Notes: a model not told the origin generated them from the letters alone. Positions 24,988 through 48,160 are shown, counted from the first letter of the whole stretch. The stretch: DNA of 63,244 nucleotides, filler included, from Atractiella rhizophila (GCA_021432655.1; 4 parts of 4 records of this genome joined end to end with filler, not necessarily neighbours in it); one strand, 5' to 3'. Numbers and translations are program-made.

Positions 24988-25304
24988 ACGGTTTGTTAAT
25001 CTGGATGATGGAGTTATTGTACTTGGGCGTTAATATTCCAAAAATGAACCCATGCAATTATAGGCAGGTCCAGGATGGCAAATCTCTCGAACACCCCAAT
25101 CACGACGTCGTAATCTCCTCCGGACAGTTCGGACGAGCTGTTGGATATATTTAATCCTTTGAGCTTTGAGAGAGCTCGAGAGAGTTGATACATTCTGATT
25201 GTAAACTTCACACATCACAATCTCTTCAAGTTCGCATGCACGGAGCAATTTCCTCCACCTTCAGCTCTCTCTACTTCTTTCTTCCCTCCTCTAATATCAA
25301 TGAA

Positions 25305-25710
25305 ATAGGTGGCCTCGTCATCGGCTCTTTCATATTATTAGGTGTCAACAGGCGAAATGCCACGATCGATTCCAACACCGTCTCCATTCAGTCTGTCACC
25401 CTTTCATCTCTCCCTCCTGTAAGGCGACGAGTTGACTAGGGATGAATGGATAGGTGCGCATTCCCGGAACCAGCAGGGAGCAGGCTTTCTATCTCACATC
25501 TACGATTAGATGGGCAGCCAATGGAACGTTCCTGGAAACTCCCATGTCAGCTCCCACGAAGGCAAGTGGCAGGGCTCGGATCCCCTCAGTCTCAGTACCA
25601 CGGTCGATGTAACGTCAACATTCCACGCGGGAGACAAGCCTACTCCCAGCCACCCGACGATCGCGATATCACGATGTACAGTTTGTGTCACCACTACTTC
25701 CATCCGCGTA
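25305..25710 (+). pseudogene. 3'-half pseudogene copy of the MP88-like gene at 46829-48160
   Basis: Nucleotide similarity to the reverse complement of ~46880-47287 (ggtggcctcgtcatcggctct vs ggcggcctcgtcatcggttct; tggataggtgcgcattcccggaac vs tggataggtgtgcattcccggaac). In-frame stop (TAC GAT TAG vs TAC GAC GAG), indels, no 5' half. Confidence 0.85.
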
Positions 25711-25885: not shown

Positions 25886-27872
25886 TTACAAACTCTTGTA
25901 CGCATTGTACATCACGCGCATCTTCTTCCTTGCGTCAGCGGAAACGTGATAACACAGGAGCTGGACCAGTAGCTGGAACGCTTCCGCCCTCTCAAACGGA
26001 TCTAGAATATTGAATTCCTTTCCCTGATACACCTCTCGGTAGTTGTCTCCCAAATCGGAGTTGGTAACCAACGCCGACAGGTATTTCCTGGTGAAAGTGG
26101 TCTTCACCAGGTGCATGAAACAACCGCGAAACGAAATCAACCACACCTGAGAAATATGTTAGGTGCTTCGGCTACTGAAATTGCCACACTCACCTCTTCC
26201 TCTGAAGCAAAGTCTGTGAAGTCGGTCAGGTCAATGTATTTATGATCACGCAAAGACTTCAAGGCCCTCCCGAGCATTTCCGCGTCTTGCTGAGGGAGCA
26301 TGCCGAAGGGGTTGTCTTTGTGTTTGACGGTTGTTTTCACCTGCATTTATCACTTCAGTTCAGACCGGGAAGATGAACTGAAGACGAACTTCAATCTGGA
26401 TGACTGGTTGACGTTCAGCAGCTGCAATCCGCCACTCCCTACCCTCAACTAAGACTGACATTTCCCCTAAGCCCTCCGTATCCCGCAGCGGACCGAAGGC
26501 TTCCTTTATCGAATCCACGTCCTGGACTTCTTCTTCCTCTTCATCTTCCTCCTTGATCGCTGAAGCGGATGAGGATGCTTTTGGATCGGAAGCTGGGGTC
26601 GTTGCTGGTTCGGACTCAAATTGCATGATCACGATTGCCCCATCGTTTCTGCACTGGTAAAGTTGAGCTGGTTTTTTTCCCTCTTTGCCCTTCGTTTGTC
26701 CACCCATCACCCAGGAAATTTGTTGGTGATGACGGCTACGAGAAATGAATGATGAAACCAAGACGCCAGAGAAGACAAGGAAAGGTAAGCACCACTCACC
26801 TCAGGCCTAACCAAACAAACTCCTTAGGTACCGTTTTCTTCCGAGTCCGCTTAGAGACACCACGACAGGCCTTCTTCTTCCAGGCTAAAGCATTCCCTTT
26901 CATCATTTTGTCTCCATGCCTAAGGCCGCACGCTCGGAGAGTAACGCCAAGCATTTCATACACGACATCCTCAACCACTGTTTCTTGCTCAACGGCAGGG
27001 CTGTACAGTTTCTGTTTCTCCTAAAGTGAAGCGGCAGGCAATTCAGCGATAGGTTTATGAACGAGACCTGAACTTACACGCTCAGGTCCCTCCCCTTCGC
27101 CTTCAGTGGACTGATCAGGCTCTTTTTCTGCCTCCTGCGATTGTGAACAAGAGGATGGGGTTTCACCCCCGGAAGCCGGAGACACAATATCGGAATCCTG
27201 ACTGCCGACATACTTAGTCTCAGGAATACGAAGGACTGTGCGTGTAGCGCAATTCAGAGCCGTCCTCAGTTGTCCCAGGTCGTGGTGCGACATGTCTTCA
27301 CTAGAGAGAGAAGCGAGGAGCTCTTTGTAAACTCAAACTAGCTATCAGCTTCTTTCTGTTCACAATAACTTAACGACTTACTGGGTGACTTCGTCACAGA
27401 ACGGAATTTGTCCGTTAATGGAATCATGCCTTTGAGATCGACGTTGCAGTTGGGTAGAACGCGTAGGGCTCGAAGGTTGTCCTTGTTCCAAAGACTTCCA
27501 CTTCGCACGATCCTTTCGTCCAGAACAATCTTGCCATATTTCGGATTTGAGTAAGCCTCAATCCATTTTTCGCGCCCCTCGTTGATTGCTGGCCATTGAT
27601 CTGAACAATACTTCAAAACAGCACTTCAGAGTGAAATACTCACCTTCGTCGCTACTTGCACCATCTTCATCCGATTCATTTGATTCTTTATACGGTTCTT
27701 CTCCCACTCTCCTTTTTTTGGCATCTGAGCCGCAACTTGTGAGCTTCCCGGAAATAGATGAAAGTTAAGTACCCCTAGGAGGTTGTTGGCGCAAGCGCTT
27801 GTTGCTTTCCGGCAATGGCTCAGTGCTGCCAGAAGAAGTATCTGCGGTTTGATCAGTTTCGGGTGATTTCAT
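25886..27872 (-). CDS. Orphan family A copy 1: putative PD-(D/E)xK-fold nuclease
   Basis: Spliced model MKSPETD...KKRR...RSGSLWNKDNLRALRVLP...EQETVVEDVVY...LYQCRNDGAIV...QPVIQIE|VK...MLPQQDAEMLG...VWLISFRG...EFNILDPFERAEAF...NAYKSL. Colinear with 44521-46576. One junction needs a GAG acceptor at 27334-27332. Confidence 0.7.
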
Positions 27873-28286
27873 CGTTAGTGGCGAACTGACAGAGAAAGAA
27901 GCTCTTTTACGGGACGAAAAGGGGCATCAAGAAAGAAATTGACGTTCCCGCTTACGGCTGTGATGGGAAAATAACTGCTGTTGATGGGAAAAACTAGTCT
28001 CGAACCAGATAACGTTTGAAGAGTGTGGCTGGCCTTTCCAAAGGTGGCTGCTCTAGAGAACTACGAGAAATGCATTAAGGAGGACCAGAAGGTTGATGAC
28101 TGTTTTTATGAGACAGCTCGCTAGCCAATCCCAATTTAAATATTCCCCTGTCATGGTGAGGTTATTCACGTGCAGCCAAGGTAGAAGTGGTAAGATCTCA
28201 ACTTGCATTTCAGTTTATCGATTCCTCACGGTTGGTACATTTCTTATTCTTGCAACACTTTCTACACTCCAGCCAAGGGACAGACA

Positions 28287-30957
28287 TCAATGGTGTTTGA
28301 TTTCGAATGTCTTCAAGCTTCCATCCGCTCCGGTCGAAGCGATATGAATCCCATCGATCCACTGAACGCCTGTAACACCAGCTGGATGTACATTCTAACC
28401 CATTTTCAGTTCAGAAGGGGGAAGTCAGCCGAAGATGAAGGACAGACCTTGATGGGAATATTCTTCATAGGTCTCTCCACGCTCCAGACGTACACGCAAG
28501 TATCCAGACTGCCGCTACCACAGTGTGTGCCTTCAGGAGACCAGGAGATGGCTTGTACTCTAGCGGTGTGGAAAACCCAGCGTCCTGTCTTTAACTGTGC
28601 ACGGATGCAGTTCGAAAAACCAAGTTAGTTTTTAGATTTCATTCAAAAGGAAATGGGAGGAACGCACGCTCATTCCTGCGACATCGTAAAGCATAATCTT
28701 CCCCGTCTGCTCGCCAGCCGCGAGAAGGGAGGCGTCAGGAGAAAAGGCGAGGGAAGTTATGGGCGAGAGGTTGTTCGTCAGCTCCCCACCAAGCTGCAGG
28801 CTGGATCCATCAAACTTGTATATCCGGACTTTATTATCCTATCCATGCACCATCCAACAAAGCATTCATGCGTCCGTTAGCATCATCCCTTGAATAACGC
28901 CTTCACTCTTCACGGAGAGAAATAAGCAGACATACCTCACCACCGACAGCAACTAAGTTTTTCTCCTTCGCTGCGTCTATCGCGCTTCCGGAGAAAGGGA
29001 GCTTGAGACTTCCGACCTTCTTTGCTTTCTGAAAGATGAGCACTTCCGTCGCATTGAGGAGGAACACGGTGGAAGATCCAGAGGCTTTACTCGTAGAGAG
29101 GCCTTTCGGGAGTCCTCCCGTACCTGCGCTCGTCGACCTATCCCAATATGCCTTAGTCCGTTGAATCAATCGGAGGAAGGGGACAGACGTGAACTCTTCC
29201 CCCTTGATCTCCTTCAGTGAATCGTCCATGCCTGCGCTCCATACCCCAGATTCGGGATCTACGTCCATCGCTATCACCTGATTCGTGTGGCTCATTCCCT
29301 TCACTGGTCTACAGACCCCTCCTGCTCCCACATCCGAGAATGAGTTGATCCGACCGTCGTACGAGCCTGTGTAGAAAGTCTTGGAGGGTCGAGAGTAGGA
29401 GAGGGAGGTGATGGATTTTTGAGCACCCTTTATTCCGACAAATTAGCAAAAGCTAGAGAAAATTTAAACTGGGATCGGTGAATGAAGGGACTGATGGAGG
29501 GATTGAATGGTGGATGAAAGCGGTGAGGGAAACCTACGTAAAGGACTTGAGAGATTTGGCCAGGAGCACGCGGATCGATGAGGTTGATGTTGCCGCTGAA
29601 GGAGAGGGAAGCGATCCTCCCTTCGTTCATCCACACATTCCCAACCTGCTGGGTATTGACAGCTGGTGCACCATCCTCTTCCACGTTCCAATGTCTGCAC
29701 ATGGAACCGCCAAGGCATTGGTCAGATCATCTCGCTACTCGAAATGTTGGGAGGAGATGCTCACGCGGCCACCTTCCCGCTCTCTACATCCCAAATTTTC
29801 ACCACCGCATCCGCGCCTGAGCTCACGAGCTTCTTCCCCGCCTTATCCCAGTCGATTGCAAACACAGTTCCCTTATGTGCACCGTCTCCGTCAATCAACT
29901 CTCCCTTCTTCTCTCCACTCGTCCCATCGTACAGAAACACCTTGCCGTCGCTGCCCGCGCTGGCGAAGGCTTCTCCAATGGGAGAATAACGAACGTCCTG
30001 GACGAAGCGGGAGTGAGAACGAATGGTAGTGCTGTACTTAAATGGGACGCCTGTGTAGAAGACGAGGGTGGTGTCGTCTGAACAGGTTACAGCTCGGAAC
30101 GGTCGTTGGTGTCGGATCGTTACTGAATTGACCACTTTAGAGTGGCCTGTGAGTTCGCCGCAGGAGGATCCTGAGTCGAAGAGAAAGGCGTGCCCGAAGC
30201 TGGTACCATAATATCCTGTTGTCAGTTCGACAAGAATGTAAGATCAGGAAAGAGGAGTGGAACAAACCGCTCTTTCCCGTCCCCTACAGCAATGATTCGT
30301 TTTGATTCCCCATCCCAAGAGAGATCGTTGATCCGTCCCGCTATCACCTTTCTACAAATCAAACCAAATCGTATCAGGGCCTATATTTCAAGGAAAGATG
30401 GGAATTACACTTCACTCTTCAAGACCTGATCGCTACCCACAGTATCCCAGACCCGGACCTATATCCACGAATCATCAACCACCAATTCATCGATCCTGTA
30501 CCCTTCCGAGGGAGAGCAAGAGGACTGGGAGTGGGCGACGAAAGACATACGGCCCCGGATGCATCTCCAGAGGCACAATAGTACCCGGAAGGGGTGAATT
30601 TGGCCACCGTGACAGGTTGAGTGTGCTGAGTGTACGCTTGCGAGGCGGATGGGTTCTGCATTAGATCGATGCATCGTCGATATTGATTTGGGAGAAAGAA
30701 GGGAGGGGGACGAACAGAGATGTCTCGTATACAGACGGTGCGGCCATTGGCGTAGCTGCGAGGGGTACTGTCATCTTTGTGCTGCCAGGGTGGAATGTCA
30801 CTTACATGATTTTTTCGCCTTGTTCCAATATAAGTCGTGTCAATCAGCGAGCATACAGTTGAGGAAAAAGCGAAGCGACCTTTGGATCACTGCCTAGCTT
30901 GACGGAGATGCCTCCCGTCGTAGCAGGATTGGCTGGGTATACTGACTCTGTATCACC
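28287..30957 (-). CDS. AIP1: WD40 actin-interacting protein 1 (AIP1/WDR1); first exon not located
   Basis: YPANPATTGGISVKLGSDPK, TVAKFTPSGYYCASGD, QRPFRAVTCSDD, FYTGVPFKY, VNTQQVGNVW, RWVFHTARV, GSLDTCVYVWS. Confidence 0.9.
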
Positions 30958-31532
30958 TACACCCTCAATGGTCAGCAAAATGCTGCTCAGGGTCAGATGA
31001 AGTTCAAACATAACTTAAAATGATCGGCCAGGTGTGCTGAATGATCAGTTGACTTTGCTCATGATCATATGGAGTTCAGGTTATCCTGTTGCTGAACCGC
31101 AGTGGTCAGTCACATGCTGCATGATTGGACTGACAACGACGGTCAGCCCTGACCATCAAGGTCCTGCATTTGTGATGGAGGCTAGAAGGAATAGACGGAG
31201 CAGTCAGATGGAAGACAGGGCAGGGAGCATGTGCGCGGCGGAGGGAGGTCAATGAACTCGAACCCAGTCTTTGAATATTTATTTGCTCTTATTTGTCACT
31301 CCTACAGTGTCACTCAGACATAATGCATAATTTCTCACTCGAAACTTATTTGTCACTCGAACCTATGGAGGTTGAAAGAACTGTAACGGATTTCGGTATA
31401 AGCTACTAGTATTCACCCCTCCCCATCTTTTCTCTCTCGCCCCTTGTTATTGTAAAGAAAACTGGTGCTCTAGGTGCGGTTTGAACTTTCTGCTTTCTTG
31501 GTCTCACTTGAGATGTCACAGGTCTTGCCTGA

Positions 31533-33154
31533 ATGGGGTTATACGCAAGAAACCTTTTCCAACAACGCAAAGACAACATGAACTTACGGAATAGAAATCT
31601 ACTACGAACACGTACGGCATCTTCGTTGGGGGATTTTCCTCTACAGAGTGGATCTGGACGTCATGCTTCCGCGCATAACACTAGGCAAGGCAAAACAAGA
31701 CGCAACGCTACAAGAGACCCACTTTTTTCAATACGCCCCTTCAGCTCTCGAACTCGACTCCCTATTAGTTCCATTCATCGACATGAGCTGCTCGAGAACC
31801 CGTTCTATCGCAGATACATCTGTGACGCATCGACGCTGCCAACACTTACTGGACACAATCTCACGTCTCCAGGAGCGTACAAGTTCCAAGCAGATTTGTC
31901 AGATTGGAACGATGAACATGTCCTTGCTTGCCGCGTCGTCCCATTGACGGGATTGCCCATTCAGCGTGTCATCCCAGAGGAATACTTAGAGGACGTCTCA
32001 GGTAGGATACGGTTGACAATGCGGCACGGCTGACAGAACTTTAGAGCTTGAACAACGCCTCATTCTGGACTTCGAACGATTCTCCGTAGAGGAGCTGGAG
32101 TATGGTTGTGCTGAGGATATCCCTCGCACAAACTTGATGTCGAAACCGTTGCAATCACTGAGGCGTATTCTAGCAACTGACTCCATGGTCAATGTCGGGC
32201 ATGCCTGCTATCTCATTGAAAGAATTCTTTCACCGCTCTTGCAAAACTCTGTTTTGAATTTAGAAAACAAGAGATTCAGGTTTCGATTCGAGTAAGCGCT
32301 CCATGCAGAAAGACTATTATTGATCGTTGCTAGCACGAAACCGAGAGTAGAAAATAGCGCGACCTTGGGTGGTGAAACAAATTGGAAACTTTCCGCCTTA
32401 TCTTCATTGGTTTTTAAAGACGTGACGGACTCAGAATTGCATTTATTGGACTTGGGCGAGGAAGATATTCCAGTAGTTGGGTTTTACTTCCAGGTTACCT
32501 TTCCTTCAAAACCGTTTTATTTTTCCAACTAATGCGTCTTACCTCAGCACCGTAAAGCATTTGTTCCTGGGCCGCGTGAGGGAGATGGCTCGGGTTGGAG
32601 CCTATACGCTGATTCGGATGTCAGCTCTATCTGCTCCGATGTCAGCTCAGATGTCAGCTCTATTTTCTCAGCCTCCCCACCACCTCCACGACCGACAGAG
32701 TCCATACATCTGAGAGGGATCAACATTCCTAGTCCTTCTTCGTATGCTCAAGAGCTTGGCATGATGATAGTACACATCACAGCTAACAGCACATTTTACG
32801 GCGTTGGAGATTGCGAGGTGCGCATAGCTAGTGTTCTTTACGAGGTTACTGAGTGCTGTTGCTGTCTAGGCTTTTGTTATCGGCATGAACCACACACGGA
32901 TGCACATCTCCGCCGCTTTCTTCCCTTCAGAGCACATCCTCGAAGCGATGAAGAACCCGGTCCTCCCGACAGACTCACTAGTCTACTTTCTTCAGAGTGA
33001 GGAGTTTGACCTTGCGCTGCCAGAGGGAAGAAGGGACGGCCTAAGGGCGCTTATAGCACTATTCAAATATATGCTTTCCGGTGAAGTAAAGATTGGGAGA
33101 ATGAAGAAATTTGCCAAGGAATTGAAAGCTCGCCGTGCGGAGCTGAAGCGGTAG
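31533..33154 (+). CDS. Orphan family B copy 1: putative catalytically dead nuclease-fold paralog of family A
   Basis: Apparently intact 5-exon model: DLSDWNDEHVLACRVVP...TLGGETNWKLSALSSLVF...PVVGFYFQ|HRK...SYAQELGMM...E|AFVIGMNHTRMH...SEEFDLALPEGRRDGLRALIALFKY. Confidence 0.75.
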
Positions 33155-33402
33155 CACATGTTATTCTCCATATTGACCTGCCTCATCTCTTTTGTGTATA
33201 TTTATCTGTAACTGCTTATAAATGCACTGCGACAAATATTGTTGTGTTAATAAGAACAACGTTCGGAGCATAATTTGTTCGGTGGATATAACGTTGTCAT
33301 CATTGAAGATCACAGCACCTGCCAAGTGGGACCCTTATTCTTTGGTAACGCTATTGAAGAGTTTCCGGTTGGGCGTATCCTGCCCAATCAAACCATACGG
33401 CA

Positions 33403-34358
33403 ATGTCACCTCCCCCAGCGGCCAATCCTCCTGAACGCACTCCCTCCTTCCGCTTCCTACCTCCAGAGTCTCTCCCTTTACGGTCTCCAGCTCCCCCGCC
33501 TACAGCTCGATGGCTGCTCCCAAGACGCGGATTAGGAGGCTCAGGTTGGATGCATACGACTGTGCCTGCACAAGACGGTGCTTCAGAATCGGAAACAGAA
33601 TCTACTGACACAGCTATACCCCCTCAAACGTCAACGTCAGGCCGGGAAGTAATTCGAATTGAAGCACGAGCGTCGGGGGAGAGAGACAGAGGAAGGGAAA
33701 CAACGGAAGATGGCATGTCGCTTCTCTCCAGCGCGCGTGCCACACTTGCCAGTTTGGCGGCAGAAGAAGTCCCGAATATGAGTGCTAGTGAAGAAGAGAG
33801 CCTTGCAAGCATTAGAGAGCGTCAAGCGAGGACCATTGATGCGCATACTAGCGTGAGTTACTTCTCCGTTATACTAGGACTGGGATGGTTCTGGAAGGCT
33901 GCATCGGTGTGCAGTTGATATCTGCTCAACGCGAGACCTTGCGAGCAGCGGAGAGGACTATACATCTTCTCCAGGATCAGATACGGTTATACGAAGTCCG
34001 TTCACGCTTTACCGCCCGTCTTTCAAACTCCTCCACCTCATCATCCTCTCTCGCCGCCTCTTCTTCCAACGGCTCCCCACAACCTTCAACATCGGCCTCA
34101 ACTGCCACTGGACAATCCCCATCGCGGCACTTTCACTCCGCCCACAACGCGCTGAATACCCGCATCCGTGCTATCTCCCTTGATATCGCGCGGCAGCGGG
34201 ACGCGGCTAAAGACAGGGAGAAGGCAGGATACGGAGAAAGGAGAGGAGCAAGAGGACGTAGAAGAGGAGGAAGAACTGGTGATCATGCAAACTCGCTACA
34301 GCACTTGAGGACACTTAAACCAGCCCCTCGGAAGTGTAGTGCCAGCAATCCTAGCTGA
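33403..34358 (+). CDS. Hypothetical low-complexity/coiled-coil protein; structure uncertain
   Basis: Two overlapping long ORFs (33403-33918, 33885-34358) joinable through a GTGAGT...CAG intron. No family recognised. Confidence 0.35.
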
Positions 34359-34401
34359 GTCCTGCGCGTAGGAAAGAGTTTGAGGAGGAACGACAGCTAG
34401 G

Positions 34402-35720
34402 ATGTATGAGCAAGGATATGGCAAGTCTCGAGCGATAGCATACCAATCACACCGTTGTCGTGCTCTTCTCCCTAACTCTTTGGCAGTTCCCGAGTCTACG
34501 TTATAATCAACAAAGTGTCGTGTTCTCGAGTGAGTAGCTTTGGGTCAAATGTTTCTCGAGTTTCACCACGGTAAACCCAGTGATTTACGCCTCTGGCTTT
34601 GGCGTGTTTGCTCTCTATGCTCTTGTGACCTACTTCAGGGTCTACGCTCAACCTCTTCACCATTCGAAGCCGCCATTCGAGGTTCCAAAGGCTGTTCTAG
34701 AGAGATCTGTGGTGGGTTACTACCCGAGTGTCAGGAAATGTCATATCTGATGATTATTCACTAGATATATGAATCATCGGACCTGGAAGGTACACCCGCA
34801 AAGTGCTTCCAAGGGTCTTGCGGAGGAGCTTGGAAACCCCTGAGATCGAGACACTGTAAGGATTGTGGATTGTGCAAGTGTGTCTTTACTTCCTTATGTA
34901 TGGCATTGCGATTTAAGCAACTTCAGGTCTACATTTGATCATCATTGTCCATGTTGAGTTTCTAACCAGTATTCTTCATTTCCCTTACTAATGATCCCGT
35001 AGGTTTGACTCCTGCATTACGTTAGAGCTGACGATGAAGCCCTTCCTTCAATTTGTTACGATTGTCCCGCTGCTTCTTACCTGGGCATTAATCCCGCTTG
35101 TTTGGCCAATTGGCAAACACCTGTCGCTTGTAAGCTTGAGCTTTTGATAAATAGTTACGCTGATTCGACGGGAAAGATTGTGCGAACTGTGTGGCTTGAT
35201 AGCAATAACCAATGGATGAAGGACCATTGGTGGAGCCTGAGGAGGTCTTGGATCGGTGGACCTGGATGGAGGTAAGCCTTTGGCCCATCGTTGATGTCTC
35301 ATCAACACCGCATTTAGATGGATGGGCGGCTTATACTATTCCTTCAAATATGCCACATTAGACGCTGCGTCCTCACGAAATCGGGTTGCGTGTCCCTCAT
35401 TTTCAGCCTTCTTCCTGGTCTTCTTCGCGACGATCACTTTGTCCTTGTCCACCGCCATGCTCTACTCCGTAATTTGGCAACTTGAATGCGGAATAACGAG
35501 TGTGGAGTACGAGCGTACGAAGCTTTGGAGAAGATTTCAAACAAAGGGGGAGAAGGGCTATGACCCCCGAATGAAACTTTGGGTTCCTTTCGGGGAAGGA
35601 CAGGGTTGCGTGATGCTAGTCTCGCCTTCTCAAGACCTATACAACCGCGGAGTCCATAGAAATTGGAGAAGTGTGATGGGAGTCACTTGGAGAGATTGGC
35701 TTTCAGGAACTCCTAGGTAA
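34402..35720 (+). CDS. DHHC palmitoyltransferase; start approximate
   Basis: WKPLRSRHCKDCGLCK|STFDHHCPW|FDSCI, TM segments, GITSVEY (TTxE-like), LYNRGVHRNWRSVMG. One donor appears non-canonical (see findings). Confidence 0.75.
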
Positions 35721-36026
35721 GCCGCCACTATGTTCCTTCACACCTTCAGACGTTCATCAATACTCTACCCATAGTGAGGAGGTCGGTAAGCTGGCACAAG
35801 TGAATGAGAAATGGCAGCAGATTCTGCTTGAGATGGCTCGGAAGCAGTGTGGCATAGATGAACATAAAGAATCGCAACACGCTTAACTGTTTCCGCTGAT
35901 GCAGAGAGCCTGCTCAACAAGATCGAGCTGGGACCGAGCATATGCTTTACATACAGATACAAACCAAGGAATAAAGATACATCACTCCTACAACGAAGGA
36001 ACTCAAGCATGCGTAATTAGAAAAGT

Positions 36027-38217
36027 TCACTTCTTGCGTTTTGGAGGAGGAACCGATACTGCACTCATTGGCGGTCGTTTAACGCTCGTCATCCTGCAGA
36101 TCATCAGCTTCATGACCTTGATGTTCAGAGTGCATACCACTGGAAAAAATCACAGCGAAACTCCGGATTCACGTCTTTGATATCCTGTCCCGTGTCGTAT
36201 CCTTTCCCCACTGGTCGAGCACATTGCCAAAACTACAACCCGAAGTCAGCAGACCGTATCTGTGGGCGAGTGGAACATCAACTTTACGGCCCTTGTTAGG
36301 ACCAGTTTTGTTGACGGTCCACATCTTGCAGGGCTCATCGTGACCTGTACAGTTCGGAACTACCGGAGGAGCAAAGATATTAGACCAAGCGGTTCGCGTG
36401 TCCTCCTGGGCGACTCGGATTTCTTCCAACAATTCAGGTGGAAATTCTTCTTCTTTCATTTCGAGCGGTGCGGATGTAGAAGTGGAAGCAGCAGGAGACT
36501 CTAGTCCAGATGATTTACGTCTTTTCGGTCTAGACCGTTCTTGCTCTTCGTTTTCGAAAGACGAACGTCGTTTCAGACACTGCTCCTCCTTTTCTTTGCT
36601 CTTCGTTGCAGGTGTGGTAAAGAAATTGGCGAGAGTTGGCTGAACAGAAGACTTGTTCTTTTTCTTCTTCGAGTTAGTGGACGAGGAGCGTTCGGCTTCG
36701 GAGGTCGATTTTCTCTTCTTGGAAGAAGACCGTTCCTTCACAGGCGACGATGCTGCACCGGCAGAGGAGACGGTAATCATGGATGATTCCTGAGAGAGAG
36801 CTGAGGATGTACCGTTGTCAACGGCTGAGGAAGAGACATCTGTTGATGAGGGAGGTCTACTGTTTGCCGCCTCCGGAGCTAGTGAAGACTCCGCCTTCTT
36901 GTTGAAGAAGGTGGTTAATGTGCCTTGTTTGAACTCTTGGTAAAATTTTGCCGCAAGTGGGGGAGGTTCAACTTCCTGGTCCTTGGCTCTACTAGGATTG
37001 AGTTGGTCCCACAACCTGAACGTTTGTCCATCGACCTGGATTTCCTCCCGAAATGTCGCTACGACAGGGCAATGATCGCTACCTTTTATGTTGGGTAGGA
37101 TATCACAACCATCGATCCAAGGAAGAAGACCATGAGTGACAAGGATATAGTCAATTCGAGTGCCATAGTTTGAAGCTCGCGCATCAATCTTCGTGTTCCA
37201 GCAGGTAAACATCTTCTCTCGGTCTGGATGGAACTTCCTGCAGATGTCGATGAGAATCCCGTTCTCGTTGATAAGATTGTCGAGCCATCGACGAGACGGG
37301 TGCCAATACCAGTCTGTGATTCCGTGCTCCTTCATCCTCCCTTCAGGATCGCAATGATCTAGCGGACGATGACAGATATTCATGTCCCCAACAACGACAA
37401 CCTCCCTCCCTGCCTTCATTAAACCTCTAACTCTAGATTCCAACATAGATTCGTATCGATTCTTGTATTCCAGTCGGTCATCATTCGTCTCGTTCGGGCA
37501 GTAAAGGTTGATGAGAACAAACAGGGACAGATCAACCATCGTGCAGCGGCCTTCACAGTCCAATTCGAGGATCTCATTGAAAGTTAAATCAAGAGACTCT
37601 AATGAAGGATGAGGGAGGATTTTAGATGAGTCGGAAAGAGCGGCAACGGTCTTTAGTCGGCCAGAAAGACCCTCTTCAGCCTTCACGGGAACGACGGTCG
37701 ACTTCTTCGTGTAGATTCCAGTGCCGGAGTAACCCTTAACTGGGACGCGCTGCACAAAGGCATAAATCAGTTACAGTATTATTAGCTGTGTAATGACCAT
37801 GATTAACCGAATAGAAGGAATAAAAGCAATCGAACTCGTTCATGATGCACATATTCCGCTCGACTTGCTTTCGTGTCATTTTCGTTTCTACCACCACATT
37901 CTACGGCACCCTTCGCATCATTAAGAGAGGACGCACCTTGTACACACACAATGTCTGCATCCATGTTGGCAATTATCCCTTCATAAGAGCTGTTTGGTTT
38001 GAAGTACTCTGACCAACTGGTACCGGCTTTCACTCAGCTTATTTCGCGCTATCAAAGAGAGCACTTGCGGGTGATAGTAAGGAAGTGTTTTGAGTCCGTT
38101 CTAGGTACCACTTCAGTCCAGACAGACGGTTCGTGTTTGCTTACGATATTCCATGTCTAACCGCGACAATAGGTCATGACTGTCAGCTGTGAACTGAGTA
38201 CTCACCATTAGCTTCAT
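36027..38217 (-). CDS. APN2: AP endonuclease 2 (ExoIII family with C-terminal GRF zinc finger)
   Basis: MKLM|TWNI|NGLKTL, ADIVCVQ, KGYSG, LINLYCP, VVGDMN, TCWNTK, GTRIDYIL, GSDHCPV, PIP-like QGTLTTFF, CTGHDEPC...GPNKGR...FRCDFFQW. Confidence 0.93.
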
Positions 38218-38837
38218 CCCAGCCGTGTTGGCCCAATAGTTGCTTAGTAGCTGTGGAGCTCTGAAGTCTTAAAAGACCTAGCGCGGCGGTCCAAGCTGTT
38301 GATAGTGGTCGTTTGACTCTGCCGGAGTGGCAACACCAGAACGCGAGAGTGGAATCTCGATCAACGCTCAACATAGAATGAGCGAACGACGGAGGGAGCA
38401 AGCATATCAACAAGACAACAAAGGATTGGATGCTATTATAGGGAGCTAGGACATTGCACAATCTCATTTACGACTTCCAGGTAAGCGCAGGATATTCCAC
38501 TGTTGTAAATGGGTGGGAGCACATTGAGCGGTTTAGAACAATGACAAGGTTGTTGAATCTATTTCGGACTAGAGCAATTCCTCTACAAGCATTGTTCCGC
38601 GCACTGAATTCAGGACTTGTTATCTGTAATGGATGAATCTACCTTATTCTAGCACATGTAATCCGGAGGAAGTAGGTGCAATGAAGTAGATGTGCCGCCT
38701 TGATTACATGTGGAGGATATGGAGCCTCTACCGGTGTCAACATCTACGCTACTTCGATTTTCTCAAAATCTATACAAACCTCTCCCCTTTCTCAATGTTT
38801 TGGATGTGCTCATTCGTTCTAAGGCAAACACAATATC

Positions 38838-39923
38838 ATGCTCCTCGTTTTAACTCACCCTCTCGCTTTGTCCACCTCCTATGTTGCATCCCTCTATCTC
38901 TTCAAACCGCGTCAACAACCATCTTCAGATGCACCGGTTCACCTGCCGCGAGACAATCCCGCTGTGATCCGAGCTCGCCTAACAGGACTTTCACTCTCCA
39001 CAATCGCGTCTTTCGGACTACTTGCTCTTCGTTATCACCGCTCTGGACTCTCGATACTCGGGTGGAGAGGGTTGTTTGATCTCCTTGGCTTACAAGTCGA
39101 CCGTCAAGCCATCAAAGCAAGTATCGTTGGAGTGGGGTTGACAGCATCCCTTTTTGCCGGGCCTCTTTTTGTTGAGTTTTTGGATCGAAAACTCCCAGGA
39201 CAGAAGTGGTTCAGCTTGAAGCGTTGCTGGGGAGATGTAACGAGTTGGATCGGGCTGCGGAACTGGGTCTTTGTATGGGTTTATTGCTTCTGCTAGTCCA
39301 CGGAGCTGAACTGAGTCAAGGCACCGTTGACGGAGGAGCTGATTTTCCGCTCTTTCACGTTCGCTTCCGAGTTCATTATGACCAACGGAATGGTAGACTG
39401 GAAATGGCTTGTATTCTTTACACCCGTTTATTTTGGAGTTGCTCATGCACATCATATTTGGGAGTCCTATGTGCAAAGTGGGAGGACAAGGGATGGACTG
39501 ATCAGAGGAAGCATCCAAGCTGGTATGTCTTTCCCTTGTATTGGTAATTCTACAACTAATTTGTCAAAGCTTTTCAATTCTCCTACACTACACTCTTCGG
39601 ATGGTACTCGAGCTATCTCTTTTTCCGAACAGGTGTGCTTCTCCGATCTAGCACTAGCACAACCTGACTAGCGACAGGTTCTGTTTATCCTTCCATCTTC
39701 GCCCACACCTTCTGCAATATGATGGGCTTCCCAACTTTGGGATACGATCTTGATCGCTATCCGGAGAAGAAACAATGTCTGTCCCCCCTCTCACACAGGG
39801 CTATCGTTAATCAAAGTCATAGCCATTATCTGCTCTTACATCGCCGGTATCGTTGCTTTCACGGCTGGTATGGTCAGATTTGTGCATACGAGGGAATTCG
39901 TTTATTGGCCAGCGCTCCTTTGA
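38838..39923 (+). CDS. RCE1: CAAX prenyl protease 2
   Basis: YVASLY, RDNPAVIRARL, LFAGPL, LRNWVF, TEELIFR, FGVAHAHH, FGWY, HTFCNMMGFP. Confidence 0.92.
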
Positions 39924-40049
39924 TCTGTTTCAGTCGTGGATTCAATTCACTTCAAGCGGTTTTTGTTACAGTTTGTTTACAACGCAGCGGTACATCTGAT
40001 AATATAAAAACAAAAAATGAGGCAGCTCAAAATGGAGAACAACACTGTG

Positions 40050-41523
40050 CTACCGCATCAGCTCCGCATGGCGAGCTTTCAATTCCTTTGCAAATTTCTT
40101 CATTCTCTCGATATTCGCTTCATCTGAAAGCACATATTTAAGTAGTGCTATAAGTGCCTTCAGGCCGTCCCTTCTCCCCTCCGACAGCCCAAGATCATAT
40201 TCCTCACTCTGACGAAAGTAGACCAGCGAATCAGTAGGAACCACTAGATTTTCATCGCTTTCACGACGTGCTTGGAAGGGAAGAGAGCAGCAGAGATGTG
40301 CATCCCAGCGCGATTCATGCCGATAACAAAAGCCTAGATAGCAACTCAGCACTCATAATGAATGCTTACCTCACAACTTCCAACGCCATAAACTTTACTG
40401 TTACTTGTGGCGTGCGCTATCATCATGCCAAGCTCTTGAGCGTACGAAGGAGGGCTGGGGATGTTGATCCCTCGCAGGTGTGTGTGGAGGCGACGCCGAC
40501 AAAATAGGGCTGACATCTAGATCGTCCGGATGCCGATCTAGGTACGCGCGTTTCTCTTTATTCTCCCTTTGCCAGTGCAGGCTCGATAACAAGTCTTCTC
40601 CCCATGCCGTCCTTGTACAAATGCTTTACGATGCCAAGTTAAAGGTCATTAGTGGAAGTAACACGGTCTTTTATGGGTGGTGACCTGGAAGTACAATCCA
40701 ACTGGAATGCCATCTTCCTTGTCCAACTCATACTCCGTCAAGTCTCCGTCACGTCTTTAAATATCAGTGAAGAACAGACGAAAGTTTCCGGCTCGTTTGA
40801 CCCCCAAGGTCACGCTATCTTCTAATCTGGATTTCGTGCTAGCCAGGATCAGTCCATTCTGCGTGTATTAACACTCACTCCTACCGAAGTTTGAATATCT
40901 TGTTCTTGACCGCTAAAGAACCGGTTTGCGTCAAATACTGGGCATGAGCCACATCGACCATTGAGGCGCGATCCGCCTCAGTGATTGCAATGGGCTAGCC
41001 ATCAAGTTTGCGTTAGGGATATCTTGCTCATAGCCATTCTCTAGGTCTTCTACAGAGAAATGCTCGAACTCGAGAATGAGGTATTGTTCAAGCTCTAAAA
41101 GTTCTGTCAGCAAGACTACGTCTACACTCGTTCCTGTCCTACCCTACCTGAAACATCGTCAAAGTATTCCCTTGAGATGACGTGCTGTATGGGCTGTCAA
41201 TGGGACAACACGGCAAGTTAGAATGTGTTCATCGCTCCAACATGAGGAAACCACTTGGAATTTCTTCACTGCGGGTGGGGTGACATTGCATGTAAGAGTG
41301 GGAAGCGCTGATACGTTACAGATGTCGTCTTTGGTTGGAACAAAGAGAAAGTCGAGTTCGAGAGATGAAACGGCGAAGTGGGGACAATTGGTGCGCGCGC
41401 TTTCCGCGTCGTATTTTGCGCTTAGCGATCTTCCGCATAGAACCATGGGATCCGCGCAGTGGGAACCTGGGCTGCTGACTAGTAAATGTGGATGTGCGTC
41501 GTAGTTTCTATTTGTAAGATCAT
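40050..41523 (-). pseudogene. Orphan family B copy 2, pseudogene (closest to copy 1)
   Basis: Homologous blocks (WSDEHILTCRVVPLT; LEQYLILEFEHFSVEDLE; PTDSLVYFRQSEEYDL..EGRRDGLKALIAL..FAKELKARHAEL) broken by frameshifts and stops (e.g. just after the ATG and at KAMKI*). Confidence 0.8.
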
Positions 41524-42432
41524 CTTAACGTAATGTTCTTGCTAGGAAGTTACGATGGGTTTTGCTGCGGCATCGCACGAAAACGAAAACAGCAGGAGAA
41601 TTTAAGAAAATCTGACCTGAGCGTAAGAGCGTTGAGGACACCAAGTTGCTAAAGTATGCGCTAGTAGGAAGAGAAGTCACAAGGGAACGGGGACCAGTTC
41701 TCGCCTTTATGACCAGGAACATGAATGAGACCACTGTCGATGTCGACTACTTATAAGTGAGATGGCGGTGAGGATAACAAGCCCTGGAAGCCGGGAAGAA
41801 GGCCAGGCGCTAGCTTTGATTACATTGCCAGCTATATTGCATTTCGCTGCGTCGCCAGGGGAACCAATGAAAGAAAAAATGAACAAGAGTGAGGAAGAAG
41901 GTCGACTTACAACTGTACTCGAATTTTACAGCCTGAGCGTATTTCACCAGTTGACATGTTTGTGGGGTAACAGTGACCAAATTCATGTTTCATTGATAGA
42001 TTAAATATAGTAGATCAAAGTTTGCAATTGTTTTACATCGTTTTCGTTCTTTTGTGAGTATTAAATTATGTTGCGCCCACCTGTGTCGAATTCTGCTCCA
42101 TTCTCTTGTGGAGACACTCATATATTGCAATGACCAATGACGAAAATATCATGATGTAGAGAGAAAAGCCATGTGGGTATTTATTTATTCTTGTTTTTGT
42201 TTGGAAACTTTGTCGATTCCTGTGAATAAGACGTGGACAAAGCACGATTGGCTTCAAGTTGGATCAAACGTGTTCGGATGCGCTCCTGCCCTTCAAATGA
42301 GCTGTAATTTACTCCGGTTCTGGCAGGTAATCTAGTTATAACATGCTTTTATGTTATTCAAAACTGTCTGCGACAGCACAATGAAGTATAAACGGAGAAA
42401 GACGAAGCACCTCGAATAGAAAGCCGCATTTG

Positions 42433-44083
42433 CTACTGTTTCTGTTCTTCATGACGAGATTTCAATTCCTTCACAAATTTCTTCATCCTCCCAATCTTCG
42501 CTTCACCTGAAAGCACATATTTGAACAGTGCTATCAGTGCCTTCAGGCCGTCCGTTCTTCCCTCTGGCAGTGCAAGGTCAAACTCTTCACTCTGAAGAAA
42601 ATACACCAGCGAGTCTGTTGGGAGGACGGCATTCTTCATGGCTTCTAGGATGTGTTCTGAAGGGAAGAAAGCGGAGGAGATGTGCATTCGTGTGTGATTC
42701 ATGCCTATAACGAATGCCTTGACGGGGTTCAGTGACTATACATCCACAAGCCCGAACAAACTGACCTCATGATCAGCAACTCCGTAGGCTTTACTATTAG
42801 CGGTAAGCTGCGCTAACATCATGCCTAGCTCTTGCGCATGTGAAGGAGGGCTTGGAACATCCTTTCCCTTCAAATGTAGAGACTCTGATGGCCGAGGGGG
42901 AGGTGTTGGCGTAGATACGATGGAACTGACATCCGATTCAGGATGCTGGCGCTGATACTCGCGTTTCTCCTCATTCTCTTCATGTGCATAACGACAGTCT
43001 GCCTTCTCTTCCGACCAGCGCCGCCCTTCAGCAAAGGACTGAGCATGCTAAGAAAGGATTATTACTCTGATTTTTGCGACATAAATGCTCTTGCCTGAAA
43101 ATAGAATCCAACCACAGGAACACGCTCTTCTTTATCGACGAAGGCAGTATGATATTCGGTCACGTCTCGAAATATAATGGATGAGTAGAGGGTCAATTTC
43201 CAATTGGTGTTGCCTCCGAGAGTAACGCTGCTTTCGACATGTTCCTTGGTGCTGCTTGAAATGTCAATTGTGGGTTTGTCGACTAAACCACTCACCAGAA
43301 ACAAAGTTTTAGCCTTTTCTCTCCTATCTGCAGCTTTGAGTCGTCAAAGAGACCCCAAGTAATTTCATCCATCAGAGTTTGCGCCAGCCGCACCCCAGAC
43401 ATCCACTCGCTCCTTAATATCGATCTCAGAGTCAACAATGGAGCGACCATCAAGCTGCCCATCGGAATAGATGCTTCAGAGCCATATTCCAGATCTTCCA
43501 GAGAAGGTCGTTCAAAATCTTGAATGATTCGGTTCTCGAATTCTGAACATGAGTGCTTTAGCCAGTTTCTCTTCTTGTTATAGAGCGCACCTGTCAGATG
43601 ATCAAAGTATTCTCCAGGAATCACATGTCGTATCGGCAGCGCTGTTAATGGGACAACTCTGCAGGCAAGGATGTGATCATTGGTCCATTCCGATAGATCA
43701 GCCCGAAACGATTGAGGTGTGGAGAAACTCGAATTTCGCCCTGTGAAAGATGGCAAAGATTGTGAATCCGAAGTGTATCGTTTGTAGAACGTGTTTCTTA
43801 AAAGTTCTTCTTCAATAATGAGATGGACTGGCATTCTTGTTCTTGTAGACAACTGGCGAATGGAAGTTGGCTGAGGTATCGGTACTGGGTCTTTGAGCCG
43901 CCATTTTCGCTTTCCAACCGTACGGGTGGTAGAGCGAGAGATGCCGAGCGGCAAATTCTGCTCTTGGGGGTAACGAGGTGTGGAAATGCGCTTTGGGACC
44001 AATTTCCTGCTCCGTAACTGCATATTTTCTTCTCGTTCGCGTCGAATTCTTTCGGTAGATATCTCATGTCGTGTTTGAACCAT
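42433..44083 (-). CDS. Orphan family B copy 3: putative catalytically dead nuclease-fold paralog
   Basis: DLSEWTNDHILACRVVP...TLGGNTNWKLTLYSSIIF...PVVGFYFQ|HAQ...SHAQELGMM...AFVIGMNHTRMH...SEEFDLALPEGRTDGLKALIALFKY. Third intron is GC-AG (donor ~43094). Confidence 0.75.
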
Positions 44084-44520
44084 GTGAGGTCTGCATTGAA
44101 GCTACTGTAAAAGTAAAAACGGCAAAAAAGACACCATACGCGGTATGAGAAATGTGCAGTATTCGGCAGATGATCCCAATGTCAAGCACAATTACTTCCA
44201 GGAGTGGAGAGGGCGATCACGTGAGCAAGATACAACAACATAGGGTACGTAATCGGCCTTCCAGGCAATCAAAACTTTGCACTTTATCTCATGTCCAAAT
44301 AAATCACGACTCCACCTTGTAGTGTTGCCAATAGGCACGCATTTTCATGTCTTGCCTTGTCAACTTCTGACCTTCTAGCTAGGCTGGGCTTAGGACAAAC
44401 AAATCATAAAAGCGTTTTCAATACGGATCTTGATTTCTTTGAAGTTGGAGGAAATGCGAAGTGCGACTATAAATGAGCATTAAGAGCGTTGCTTCAATTC
44501 TGTCAGTGTTTAAGTCTCAA

Positions 44521-46576
44521 ATGGCATCGGAATCTCAAGCTGCAGAAGGATTTATCGACAGTAGCACAGAGCTCATCAAAGGTACGAAGAAACGTACTCG
44601 TAACCAGGTTCAAAATGGTAAGCCTTCACCAGATTGAATAGAATTAGGAGGCGTGATACCATGAAAATCGCTCGCAGAACCAAAAAAGAAGAAAGAGGAC
44701 GCGGACCGTTCTGACTCTAGTGGGTCGGAAACAGAAGTAGATTCTGAAGGAGACCCAGGTGTGTCTGTACCTTCTACCCGCACGGTGATCATACAAACAT
44801 TTCGGACAGGTAATAACAATGCCGCTGAAACCACCTACAAGCCATGGCCAGAGATCAAGGCTGGTCCCGATTCTTGGGTCAGCGCGTACAAAGAAGCAGA
44901 TCGAAAAAAGGTCCTCCTCAACAAGCGTGTCGTTCGGAGCGGCAGTAAGTGGAATGAGGAGAATCTTCAAGCGCTGCACGTCATTCCACACTGTGACGAG
45001 GATATCGCCACGATGATCCCAGATTCCACTGAGTTTGACGAGGTTGAAGAGTCGAGATGTTAGTATCATGCCATCGCAATCAGAGTGAAATACTGACTGT
45101 GATGTAGTGTTTGAGGAGATTTTATCAGCGGTGACGGAAGAGCACTCATCGAGTACCTACCTGAGAGACTTTCAAAACGCCTTGAGTTTTGCTACGCGTA
45201 AAGGCTTCCGTATTCCTGCCGTACACTACGACAAATCTCGACCTCCAGCTCAGGATCCCGAGCTGGAGTCCGAGCCAAGCACCCAAGGTTCTCCCCCTCC
45301 TTTTTCGGAAGGAGAAAGGGAAGAGACTTCACTTCTCGCAGTTCTCGAAGTGGACGTGGACGTGGAAAAGCCACCTGTTCTGGAACAGAAGAAAGTAGTC
45401 TTGGACTCCTCACCGTCGGCGCGAGCTAGCTCGTCTACCAAACCGGCCAAGAAGATCACCCAAGTTAAGGTTGCAGAGCAGGAAACCTCGTACGAGGAGG
45501 TCGCATACGCGTTCATTCGCCTTGCCTTGATATCATGTGGAGCTGTGCCGGGTGAAGAAGCGACGAAGAAGAACATCTTAGCTTGGCCTAATCGGAGGAC
45601 ACGGGAGAAGAGAAAGGTGAAGAGATCGTCGAAAGGGGCAGGACGACCCGTGGGAACCAAAAATTCCGAAGAATTCGTTTGGCTAGGATTAAGGTAGGTT
45701 GCATCCCATATCTGAGGTGCAGCAGCTGATGGCAGCCTAAATCACCACAGCCGACATCGTCAGGTCACTAATTGGGTGATGGGTGGCCGAACGAAGGGTG
45801 GTGCTGGCAGACCAGACCAACTGTATGTGTCGAGGACGGATGGGGCTATTGTTGTCATGCTGCTTGCGCCGGAGGAGACTTCAAAGGCTCAACCAGGCCC
45901 ACTTATTCCGAAATCCGACGAGGCTCAAGCTGAAGCTGAAACGGAGAACAGCAAGGAAATCAGCGTCAAAGATGCACTTGAACCTTTAAGAGACGCGACT
46001 CCAGAGGAAAAGGTCGTTCACCATCAAGGCAAGGAACGGTTGATAGTGGCTGCAGAGTCGCAGCCTGTCATTCAAATCGAAGTACGTCCTCACGTGCCTT
46101 GTACTTTAGCTAATAGTTCGACAGACAAAAACGAGTAAACATACTCCGTATCAGATGCTGCCCCAACAAGATGCAGAACTGATCGCCAGGGCACTGAAGC
46201 CATTGAAGGACCAGAAATACATCGATTTGAGCAAGTGCACCGACTTTTATCCCCAAGACGAAGTGAGTGGCACGTCAAGCGTCTTCTCCAAAACCTAAGT
46301 TGATTTCCTTTTCAGGCTTGGCTGATTTCGTTTCGAGGTTTACACATGCACTTCGTGAAGACTATCTTCACGGCTGACTATCTCGCTGCTCTGGTCAGAA
46401 AGCAAGACCTTGGAGATCTCTATCGAGACGACTACCAGAGCAAAGAGTTAGATATTCTAGACCCTGAGAAGCGCGCTGATGCTTTCTATTATTTAACCAA
46501 GCTTCTTTGTTATCACAGGTCCTCCAAAGCGAGACAGAACATGCGCGTACTTCACAATGCCTATAAGAGCCTGTAA
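44521..46576 (+). CDS. Orphan family A copy 2: putative PD-(D/E)xK-fold nuclease
   Basis: MASESQ...KKKK...RSGSKWNEENLQALHVIP...EQETSYEEVAY...LYVSRTDGAIV...QPVIQIE|TK...MLPQQDAELIA...AWLISFRG...ELDILDPEKRADAF...NAYKSL; canonical introns. Confidence 0.78.
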
Positions 46577-46828
46577 TCATTGATCTAATCGTTCTGTCCT
46601 CTTCTCTCGTTGGCGGCGGATACAAGTGGTCACCTCATGGACTGGTTACCTTTTTTGCTACTCCATCGATTTCGAACAATATTCGTTTATGTATTTACCA
46701 GCTTACTCGACTGCGTTGCAATGCGTCATAAGTGACTTTACATCACAGGCCGAAATTGGACAAGCAACAAACATTAAAGTAAAGAACGAAATTAAATCGA
46801 GTCCATTGTCCATCCACAATTCACAATA

Positions 46829-48160
46829 TTACTCCTCAGCAAAGGGGCTGGGGTCGATCCTATATTCCCTCTTCTTAGGATAAGCGGATCCAGCGATGGA
46901 AGTTGTCGTGGTGCAGCTGTACGTCTTAGTGGTCGGATGGGCAGCAGGAGTGGTCTTGTCACCCTGGTGGAAGGTTGACGTTCCATAAACACCGGGAGTG
47001 AGAGGATCAGAACCCTGGCACTTGTCGAAGTATCCAACGTCGTAGTTTCCGGGATCGTTCCATTCGCTGCCCATCTCGTCGTAGATGTGAGGGCAGTAAG
47101 CCTTCTCCCTGCCAGTTCCGGGAATGCACACCTATCCATGAATCCCTTGTCAGCTTAACAGCACAAAACTAGACATGAGGTGGGTGGACAAACGCGAATG
47201 GAAAGCGTGTTGTAATCGATGAACTCGTGCCATTCCGCATATTGGACTTTCTTGCCTTTAAGAGAACCGATGACGAGGCCGCCTATTCCACATGGTAAGA
47301 CACATCAAGGTGGCATCAGACCTGTCGAAAAGAGCGGAGTAAAGGAAGGAAGAAAGGTGGACAGACCAATGGGATTGCCCTTGCCGCTGGGACCATGAGG
47401 ATCAAGCTCTCCTCCCTCGTCGCCCTTCAACACGTTGACTTTGGTGAAGTCGCCGGTACAGGTGATTTGGAGGAATGACTTGGTTTGCAACCAGTGGCAT
47501 CTATTTGAAAGAGATAGTGTTAGAGGAGACGGCTGATACTGGGAGGAAAAGCACGACATACCCTTTCAAAGTCCCGGCAGGAATGAGCCTCGCACCGTGA
47601 CCTATTCAGTCGAATCTTTATCAGGGATGTACTGTCACATTCAAAGCACGAACCAGGTTTAGTGCACCAAGCTACCTGTTCACAAATCACTCATTTAAGC
47701 CTTCGTTCCGACTAAAAGGTAAGCAAGGAAGACGCACAACAGTCTCTTCGACGTCGCCGATTGTCTTACCCTTGCTCTGAGGAGCGAACATGCCTGTCGC
47801 GACCCCAATCAGCTTGAGCGATGGGGGATGGGAAGAGAAGGCACGGACACCAATCGTCGATGCTGTATATCCAGGCAGTTTGACACTTGCTATCAGACAG
47901 CAGAACGCTTCAGTAACTTGCCGAAGAGGAGTATACCAGAAACAGACCTGGAAGCGCTGTCAACAGTCCCACAGTCGTTGTACCCGCTTTGTCCCTTCCC
48001 ACCAGGAATCATCAGTCCCCCTTGCTCCATGGAAACACCGCCTGAAACTCACTTCTTCGCTCTGATGAGGAAGATTGTTGGGGTCGACAATTGCACCGGC
48101 TTTGACGAAGTTGAGCAGTGTGCCCACGAGAGCAACGGTTAGAAGGGTGGATTTGAACAT
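46829..48160 (-). CDS. Secreted Cys-containing glycoprotein, MP88/'macrophage-activating glycoprotein'-like
   Basis: Signal peptide MFKSTLLTVALVGTLLNFVKA; VAWCTKP, ARLIPAGTLKG, GDEGGELDPHG..GNPIGGLV, YCPHIYDEMGSEWNDPGNY. Family assignment is from memory of these motifs. Confidence 0.75.

Follow-up and report, generated by a model that had tools for sequence, protein, structure and literature searches.

Canonical PD-(D/E)xK nucleases place a glutamate on helix 1, an aspartate at the start of strand 2 and an ExK motif on strand 3 (Steczkiewicz 2012, PMC3424549); HsdR and RecB enzymes carry a QxxxY motif, for which we follow the account of Sisakova 2008 in the paper on the SPOK genes of Podospora (PMC6660238). 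That paper describes SPOK domain 2 as a fungal PD-(D/E)XK domain with HsdR as its best HHpred match, aligned at the catalytic and Q-bearing motifs, and the SPOK genes as duplicating and diversifying within lineages. Another fungal PD-(D/E)XK nuclease-like domain, PDDEXK_12 (PF20516), is of unknown role, and our literature search found no paper naming PF20516. Here we compare with these systems a family of genes, termed family A, two members of which (A1 and A2) lie at either end of a 21-kb cluster in a 63,244-nucleotide stretch of DNA from Atractiella rhizophila (GCA_021432655.1; four pieces joined with filler, hereafter the window). We lean slightly towards reading the C-terminal domain of family A as a divergent member of the PD-(D/E)xK nucleases, of RecB/HsdR type, in which invariant E, D, ExK and Q...E residues would form a metal-dependent active site. 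If this fold holds, family A would be new within a known superfamily and restricted to one lineage. We regard A1 and A2 themselves as expressed, selectively maintained members of a family restricted to A. rhizophila.

No public protein identical to A2 was returned by our searches, the closest being P0001, at 77% identity. When 1.84 billion representative proteins were searched exhaustively with P0001 (HMMER, E≤0.001, where E is the expect value), four matched, all named A. rhizophila: P0001 itself (532 amino acids), P0002 (241 amino acids), P0003 (610 amino acids, 7e-14) and P0004 (279 amino acids, 2e-9). P0002 is letter for letter residues 302–542 of A1, and P0001 lies on another contig and is thus a third paralogue besides A1 and A2. 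A1 and A2 share a layout in which a basic and acidic N-terminus, probably disordered and bearing patches like a nuclear localization signal (NLS), is followed by a small conserved module VRSGSxWN...L.AL.V.P and then by the C-terminal domain of about 250–320 amino acids. The family proteins end right after this nuclease-like domain, and no C-terminal kinase was found by Pfam in P0001–P0004. An earlier note on this DNA had listed in both copies an acidic helix, a strand ending in D-G, a PVIQIE-x-K motif split by an intron, the sequence MLPQQDAE and N-terminal basic patches, and each of these was found in place in A1 and in A2 (Table 1).

The motif set is conserved beyond what chance would give. 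A1 and A2 share 233 of 526 aligned residues (44%), and the motif set was chosen from these two alone, so that P0001, P0003 and P0004 serve as an out-of-sample test. In 220 columns of the domain none of the five sequences has a gap; A1 and A2 agree in 131 of these, and 23 of the 131 are invariant in all five. Each of the nine residues of the motif set (E, E, D, G, E, K, Q, A, E) falls within those 23 columns, and the probability that five columns picked at random from the 131 would all be invariant is 1.1e-4. The order E...D...ExK...Q is kept in A1, A2, P0001, P0003 and P0004, which include paralogues with identities down to 26–30%. D, E and K, whose conservation in homologues the earlier note had taken as a touchstone of its reading, are thus invariant in all five A-type paralogues, as are the D-G followed by a hydrophobic run and the hydrophobic run leading into ExK. 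The helix has the consensus (Q/P)E(T/H)xxE, in which the two invariant glutamates stand four apart in a predicted helix. At the level of sequence, then, family A shares its element order and catalytic residues with the canonical enzymes (PMC3424549), but differs in that the D and ExK strands of A1, A2 and P0001 are separated by a large acidic insert, about 65 residues long. P0003 and P0004 lack this insert, which is therefore a loop and not part of the core.

Among the families compared by profile it is the HsdR nuclease domain (HSDR_N, PF04313) that family A resembles most. We compared profiles all against all with hhalign, using alignments built from bacterial genomes for the PD-(D/E)xK families PDDEXK_1 (10 sequences), VRR_NUC (14), HSDR_N (26), UPF0102 (24), Mrr_cat (15) and RecU (4), and for the control families RuvC (25), RNase HII (21) and peptidyl-tRNA hydrolase (22). 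Too few sequences for a good profile were available for YqaJ (2 loci), HSDR_N_2 (2 loci) and RecU (4 loci), lambda Exo was represented by near-identical copies only, and no members of PF20516 were present in phage lambda and the 14 control genomes. HSDR_N was the best match of family A and the only one above the controls: the five-sequence family profile scored 29 or 27 according to direction (HH-suite probability 12.8% or 7.3%; pairwise E 0.0022), with PVIQIExK...Q in register with PLvviElK...Q, whereas all 48 ordered pairs involving a control family scored 9–18. Column-shuffled profiles gave 13.0 ± 2.2 with a maximum of 18.0, none of the 60 reaching 28.5, and the reversed profile gave 11.9. 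Since only nine of the 30 ordered pairs among the six true PD-(D/E)xK families reached 21–31, the setting is insensitive and a score of 29 lies near its top. Sub-groups taken alone both aligned ExK on ExK; A1, A2 and P0001 together scored 22.0, and P0003 with P0004 scored 17.5, which is level with one control (17.3). When P0003 served as master, the extended alignment placed the following strand (vwLIsfRG) on qLxvisnG of HsdR. Both domains thus have a hydrophobic strand with ExK at its end, a conserved Q that opens a helix 12–15 residues further on and then a strand with a conserved glycine. The spacing from K to Q is 12 residues in four members and 15 in A1, and 12–15 in 10 of the 11 HSDR_N sequences (of 26) in which our pattern found the full motif. 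Family A differs from HsdR in having no Pfam match, helicase motor or restriction-modification context, and in being eukaryotic, intron-bearing and furnished with an unrelated N-terminal half.

Table 1. Positions of the family genes and of their conserved elements, counted from the first letter of the window
Feature	Position	Strand	Remarks
A1	25886..27872	minus	8 exons, 7 GT-AG introns, 542 amino acids, single open spliced frame
A1 exons	complement join(27872..27773, 27724..27644, 27600..27382, 27331..27078, 27020..26800, 26735..26390, 26340..26194, 26146..25886)	minus	
A1 intron 3	27332..27381	minus	GTAAGT...GAG, donor at 27381
A1 basic patches	27708..27800	minus	KRLR 27800-27789 and KKRR 27719-27708; N-terminal, spanning intron 1
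A1 acidic helix EQETVVEDVVY	26958..26990	minus	Invariant E231 and E235; candidate core helix alpha-1
A1 CRNDGAIV	26630..26653	minus	Invariant D323-G324, start of hydrophobic strand
A1 PVIQIE/VK	26335..26407	minus	E407, K409; split by phase-0 intron 26389..26341
A1 MLPQQDAE	26278..26301	minus	Q424, A427 and E428 invariant
A2	44521..46576	plus	6 exons, 5 GT-AG introns, 597 amino acids, single open spliced frame
A2 exons	join(44521..44617, 44678..45058, 45108..45693, 45751..46081, 46125..46262, 46316..46576)	plus	
A2 basic patches	44587..44694	plus	KKRTR 44587-44601 and KKKK 44683-44694; 10-residue spacer across intron 1
A2 acidic helix EQETSYEEVAY	45476..45508	plus	E285 and E289 invariant
A2 SRTDGAIV	45830..45853	plus	D385-G386
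A2 PVIQIE/TK	46064..46130	plus	E465, K467; split by phase-0 intron 46082..46124, RNA joint
A2 MLPQQDAE	46155..46178	plus	Q479, A482, E483; K to Q 12 residues
B1	31533..33151	plus	Distant relative; family HMM matches at the N-terminal SDWNDEHVLACRVVP motif and at the C-terminal sub-domain: 32870-33151 (E 4.4e-6), 31533-32030 (E 0.31)
B2	40053..41524	minus	Third B-type copy, apparently broken; family HMM E 0.2 and 7.4
B3	42436..44101	minus	Distant relative, head to head with A2; family HMM: 42436-42735 (E 9.8e-8), 43295-44101 (E 0.72)

PDDEXK_12 is the second point of comparison. Like family A it is fungal, and in the ESM Atlas it was the nearest named neighbour of two paralogues: the nearest Pfam-named clusters were PDDEXK_12 (0.82) and HSDR_N (0.80) for residues 215–532 of P0001, and, counting named clusters only, PDDEXK_12 three times (0.82–0.83) and HSDR_N (0.81) for residues 290–540 of P0003. 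The Atlas model of P0003 (predicted template-modelling score, pTM, 0.52) superposed on a PDDEXK_12 cluster with a template-modelling (TM) score of 0.57 over 177 residues; it fitted equally well (TM 0.56–0.61) to unnamed clusters from Mucoromycota, Mollusca and Ascomycota and to DUF7924 and PDCD9 clusters. PDDEXK_12 differs in that its Atlas clusters are mainly from Ascomycota, and hmmscan gave no match between it and family A at E≤10.

A number of results weigh against a nuclease fold. The match to HSDR_N covers 29 columns only, that is, one strand and the start of a helix, at an HH-suite probability of 13%, it does not put the family's D on the D of HsdR, and the score falls to 22.4 (E 0.016) when P0003 is the master. 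The remaining five of the six known families (PDDEXK_1, UPF0102, VRR_NUC, Mrr_cat and RecU) scored at noise level, 12–19, although the alignments with PDDEXK_1 and UPF0102 nonetheless set ExK on (D/E)xK. The distance from D to E ranges from 29 residues in P0003 to 84 in A1, as against 14 in HSDR_N, and the residue four after the Q is an invariant glutamate where QxxxY has tyrosine. The Pfam library, scanned with hmmscan at E≤10 using 11 exon-level open reading frames (ORFs) of the window and P0001–P0004, returned sub-threshold noise only (DBC1 at 0.015, Ribosomal_60s, DUF5607, LPD7 and DUF1684), and for P0001–P0004 neither the HSDR_N nor the PDDEXK_12 hidden Markov model (HMM) gave a match at that threshold. 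PHROGs, PADLOC and NCBIfam at E≤10 yielded nothing relevant, and the PDB gave E values of 1.1 and 1.4 only by sequence and no matches by profile. AlphaFold2 models from four-sequence alignments had an unusably low mean predicted local distance difference test score (pLDDT; 35.1 for P0001 and 42.7 for P0004). The Atlas scores of 0.80–0.83 lie below the level of 0.9 at which the tool is trusted, and so are leads. No canonical ExK is visible in the B-type relatives that lie between A1 and A2.

Models of such low confidence tell little about the fold or about a clustering of D, E and K. Foldseek against the PDB gave no match at E≤0.001 for either of them (top rows with TM ≤0.2), and VIA-align no meaningful match. 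The P0001 model has a helix at 222–239, strands at 312–317 and 322–328 around D320, a strand at 384–395 before E400-x-K402, a helix at 408–427 and a strand at 444–453, an order that agrees with the PD-(D/E)xK core but that, at such confidence, counts for little.

The principal alternative is that family A has some other alpha/beta fold and that E...D...ExK...Q is a conserved surface, such as a ligand- or protein-binding site of some lineage-specific protein, which only resembles a PD-(D/E)xK site. Short motifs of a hydrophobic strand followed by ExK are common, the sole profile-profile signal is local, and neither the profile libraries and PDB searches nor any three-dimensional model gave a nuclease match of weight. 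On the other hand, the five core residues remain invariant among distant paralogues, their order and spacing fit the PD-(D/E)xK core, the HSDR_N score exceeds every control pair and every shuffle, and the named Atlas clusters closest to two independent paralogues are of PD-(D/E)xK families. We therefore consider another fold possible but rather doubtful. The restriction-endonuclease fold proposed in the earlier note is partly supported: it gains from the order and invariance of the motifs, from the HSDR_N score and from the Atlas neighbours, and loses in that no library recognizes the family.

Our working hypothesis is that in A2 the aspartate D385, which would open core strand beta-2, and E465 and K467, on strand beta-3, would bind a divalent metal and activate water for phosphodiester hydrolysis. 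E285 and E289 of helix alpha-1 may assist this site, and the Q...AE helix (Q479, E483) may do likewise, placed as it is where HsdR and RecB enzymes carry QxxxY. The proteins would thus be DNases or RNases, with DNA or RNA as a predicted substrate. A nuclear location is suggested solely by the KKRR patch of A1 and the KKRTR...KKKK patches of A2, the latter in a layout that we take to be like a bipartite NLS; the public model of P0001 lacks the basic N-terminus. Were the nuclease reading true, a PD-(D/E)xK family undetected by profile libraries would exist in one fungal species only, with expressed members and with triad-bearing and triad-less paralogues in one cluster, and a taxonomically restricted branch would be added to a superfamily with roles in restriction, repair and, in fungi, spore killing; a defined set of residues to mutate would also be at hand. 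Were it wrong, the family would still illustrate clearly how an orphan domain can keep a polar site under sharp conservation.

In the spliced models A1 and A2 are intact. Their exon models were derived from the reading frames of the window, the DNA and the public relative P0001, and all 12 introns run from GT to AG and are 43–64 nt long. Between the two genes the proportion of nonsynonymous differences (pN) is 0.31 in the domain and 0.46 in the N-terminal part, well below that of synonymous differences (pS), which is saturated (0.82 and 0.73), from which we conclude that purifying selection has acted on both copies since their divergence. We mapped contigs of four public runs on 26600–46580, giving no weight to parts that X1, X2 and X4 leave uncovered. 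The kind of run X7 is unrecorded, but its contigs contain GT..AG and CT..AC joints at high depth, from which we conclude that it is RNA-derived. X7 contigs join 46081 to 46125 and 46262 to 46316 (GT..AG, depth 605), which are introns 4 and 5 of A2, and the split ExK of this gene is thus spliced as predicted. A further contig piece (45108–45691) corresponds to A2 exon 3, which ends at 45693 in our model. Contig depth in X7 is 110–471 for A2 and 16–18 for A1, with 1.7–3.7 for A1 in X1 and X2, two root metatranscriptome runs, although contig depth is a poor measure of expression. Junctions of A1 are absent among the 15 joints listed (43 others are unlisted). The public model P0002 has the same junction within ExK as our A1 (intron 26389..26341) and lacks the first five exons. 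The public annotation therefore seems to cut A1 to its last 241 codons and to miss A2 altogether, despite the RNA cover of the latter.

The one delicate junction is the acceptor of A1 intron 3, on which the earlier note had made the integrity of A1 depend. Use of the TAG at 27340–27338, 6 nt upstream of the GAG, gives a stop after one codon, and retention of the intron also gives a stop, whereas the GAG at 27334–27332 keeps the frame. The claim that A1 is intact only with GAG is nevertheless too strong, because the AAG at 27325–27323, 9 nt downstream of the GAG, keeps the frame too, three codons shorter. The codons after the GAG read IYKEL, compared with LFEEI in A2 and LFKEI in P0001, and a branch-like CTGAT precedes the GAG by 13 nt and the TAG by 7 nt, where the other introns with such a motif have distances of 11, 11, 12, 12 and 21 nt, plus one implausible 40. 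AG dinucleotides too near the branch point are skipped, and the RNA-confirmed intron 4 of A2 likewise passes over an AG 3 nt after its branch motif. Because of the match to the paralogues, the branch distance and this precedent, GAG is plausibly the best candidate acceptor. It might instead be argued that A1 is a decaying duplicate and that A2 alone functions: A1 needs the GAG or the AAG because the nearer TAG gives a stop, its public model retains only the C-terminal part, and its X7 depth, for what depth is worth, is the lower. We think this unlikely, as the eight exons of A1 make one open frame, its identity to A2 is 44% with synonymous sites saturated, all nine motif residues are kept, and the conserved codons, the branch distance and the A2 precedent all speak for a usable acceptor.

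The region between A1 and A2 is not a simple inverted duplication, for B1, B2 and B3 lie between them and make up with them a five-gene cluster in 21 kb. The three B-type genes, much more distant relatives of A1 and A2, are 70–76% identical to one another in nucleotide sequence, and by hmmsearch of the window ORFs with the family HMM (Table 1) they share with family A an N-terminal S-x-W-N/T...ACRVVP motif (weakly, E 0.3–7) and the C-terminal sub-domain (ORF E 1e-7, 4e-6 and 0.2). Spliced partial models of B1 and B3 are open and give E values of 1.9e-10 (B3) and 1.2e-8 for the C-terminal domain, and a phase-0 intron just before (A/V)(W/F)(L/V)I is common to the A and B types. In B1 and B3 the strand PVVGFYFQ runs directly into a phase-0 intron, as PVIQIE does in family A; in an alignment anchored on this intron, Q would replace the catalytic E and no K would follow two positions later, while MAFFT aligns the B-type core region otherwise. 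B2 looks like a pseudogene: its last exon (40053–40684, minus strand) is split over two frames, and the AG acceptor that follows the FYFQ strand in B1 and B3 is GG in B2. In B3 a GC donor may be in use (GCAAGA at 43094).

Within reach of the searches made, family A is confined to a single species. A profile search of a word-indexed protein collection returned P0001 and P0002 and no new member, 505 pattern matches among contigs of Joint Genome Institute (JGI) metagenomes contained no family relative, and the papers that mention both 'Atractiella' and 'nuclease' deal, by their titles and abstracts, with pathogen resistance in poplar and the root microbiomes of tall fescue. There are at least eight loci, namely the five of the cluster (one apparently broken) and those of P0001, P0003 and P0004 elsewhere, the copy number outside the window being taken from public protein models.

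This restriction raises the question of whether the domain, even if it has the PD-(D/E)xK fold, belongs to a selfish or conflict-related family (toxin-like or transposon-derived) that is expanding and decaying in one lineage. Such a family could explain the occurrence in one species among 1.84 billion representatives and in no JGI metagenome, as well as the crowding of loci; its look-alike clusters in the Atlas are patchily spread over Mucoromycota, Ascomycota and Mollusca, and SPOK spore killing needs a fungal HsdR-like PD-(D/E)xK domain (PMC6660238). SPOK proteins, as described there, differ in having a kinase domain, a cysteine cluster and a coiled coil, none of which is detectable in family A, and the two are likened by description only. 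The A-type genes, moreover, carry 5–7 introns of host type and stand among ordinary housekeeping genes, no terminal repeats lie at the flanks of A1 and A2, no transposon features were seen around them, and Pfam detected no kinase or other partner domain, so that we judge this origin improbable. Still further from probable is the extension in which the A-type proteins would be species-restricted, fast-diversifying HsdR-like nuclease toxins acting like the SPOK killing domain, the triad-less B types would be their regulators or antidotes, and the 21-kb cluster would be a conflict locus (for drive, allorecognition or defence against parasites) in a basidiomycete.

The setting of the cluster is that of fungal chromosomal DNA, with about 48% G+C and short spliceosomal introns. 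Pfam domains around family A (88 of the 92 window ORFs of at least 110 amino acids were scanned) mark housekeeping genes on all sides, including a trifunctional tryptophan-synthesis enzyme, aconitase, prolidase, a WD40 protein, a protein with Exo_endo_phos and GRF-zinc-finger domains, armadillo repeats and others. Immediately outside A1 and A2 lies a second diverged inverted pair (25301–25646 and 46947–47290, 72% nucleotide identity), with small ORFs rich in Cys, Gly and Thr and without Pfam match; as this pair adjoins both genes, the A genes were duplicated along with a neighbour. The long ORF at the centre of the cluster (36172–37770, minus strand), with its Exo_endo_phos domain and weak GRF zinc finger, presumably resembles an APN2-type apurinic/apyrimidinic endonuclease and would be an ordinary repair gene with no obvious link to family A.

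Three further features of the window were observed. In the WD40 gene beside A1, the RNA contigs have a CT..GC joint (30458–30554), which on the minus strand is an intron of the GC-AG type. At 34223–34427 an X7 contig of depth 131 departs from the window, with over 20 substitutions and a dozen small indels in about 200 bases, and may represent an allele, a paralogue or a mis-assembly. A 63-base direct repeat, with copies 79% identical at 17307–17369 and 17481–17543, has its two copies 174 bases apart.

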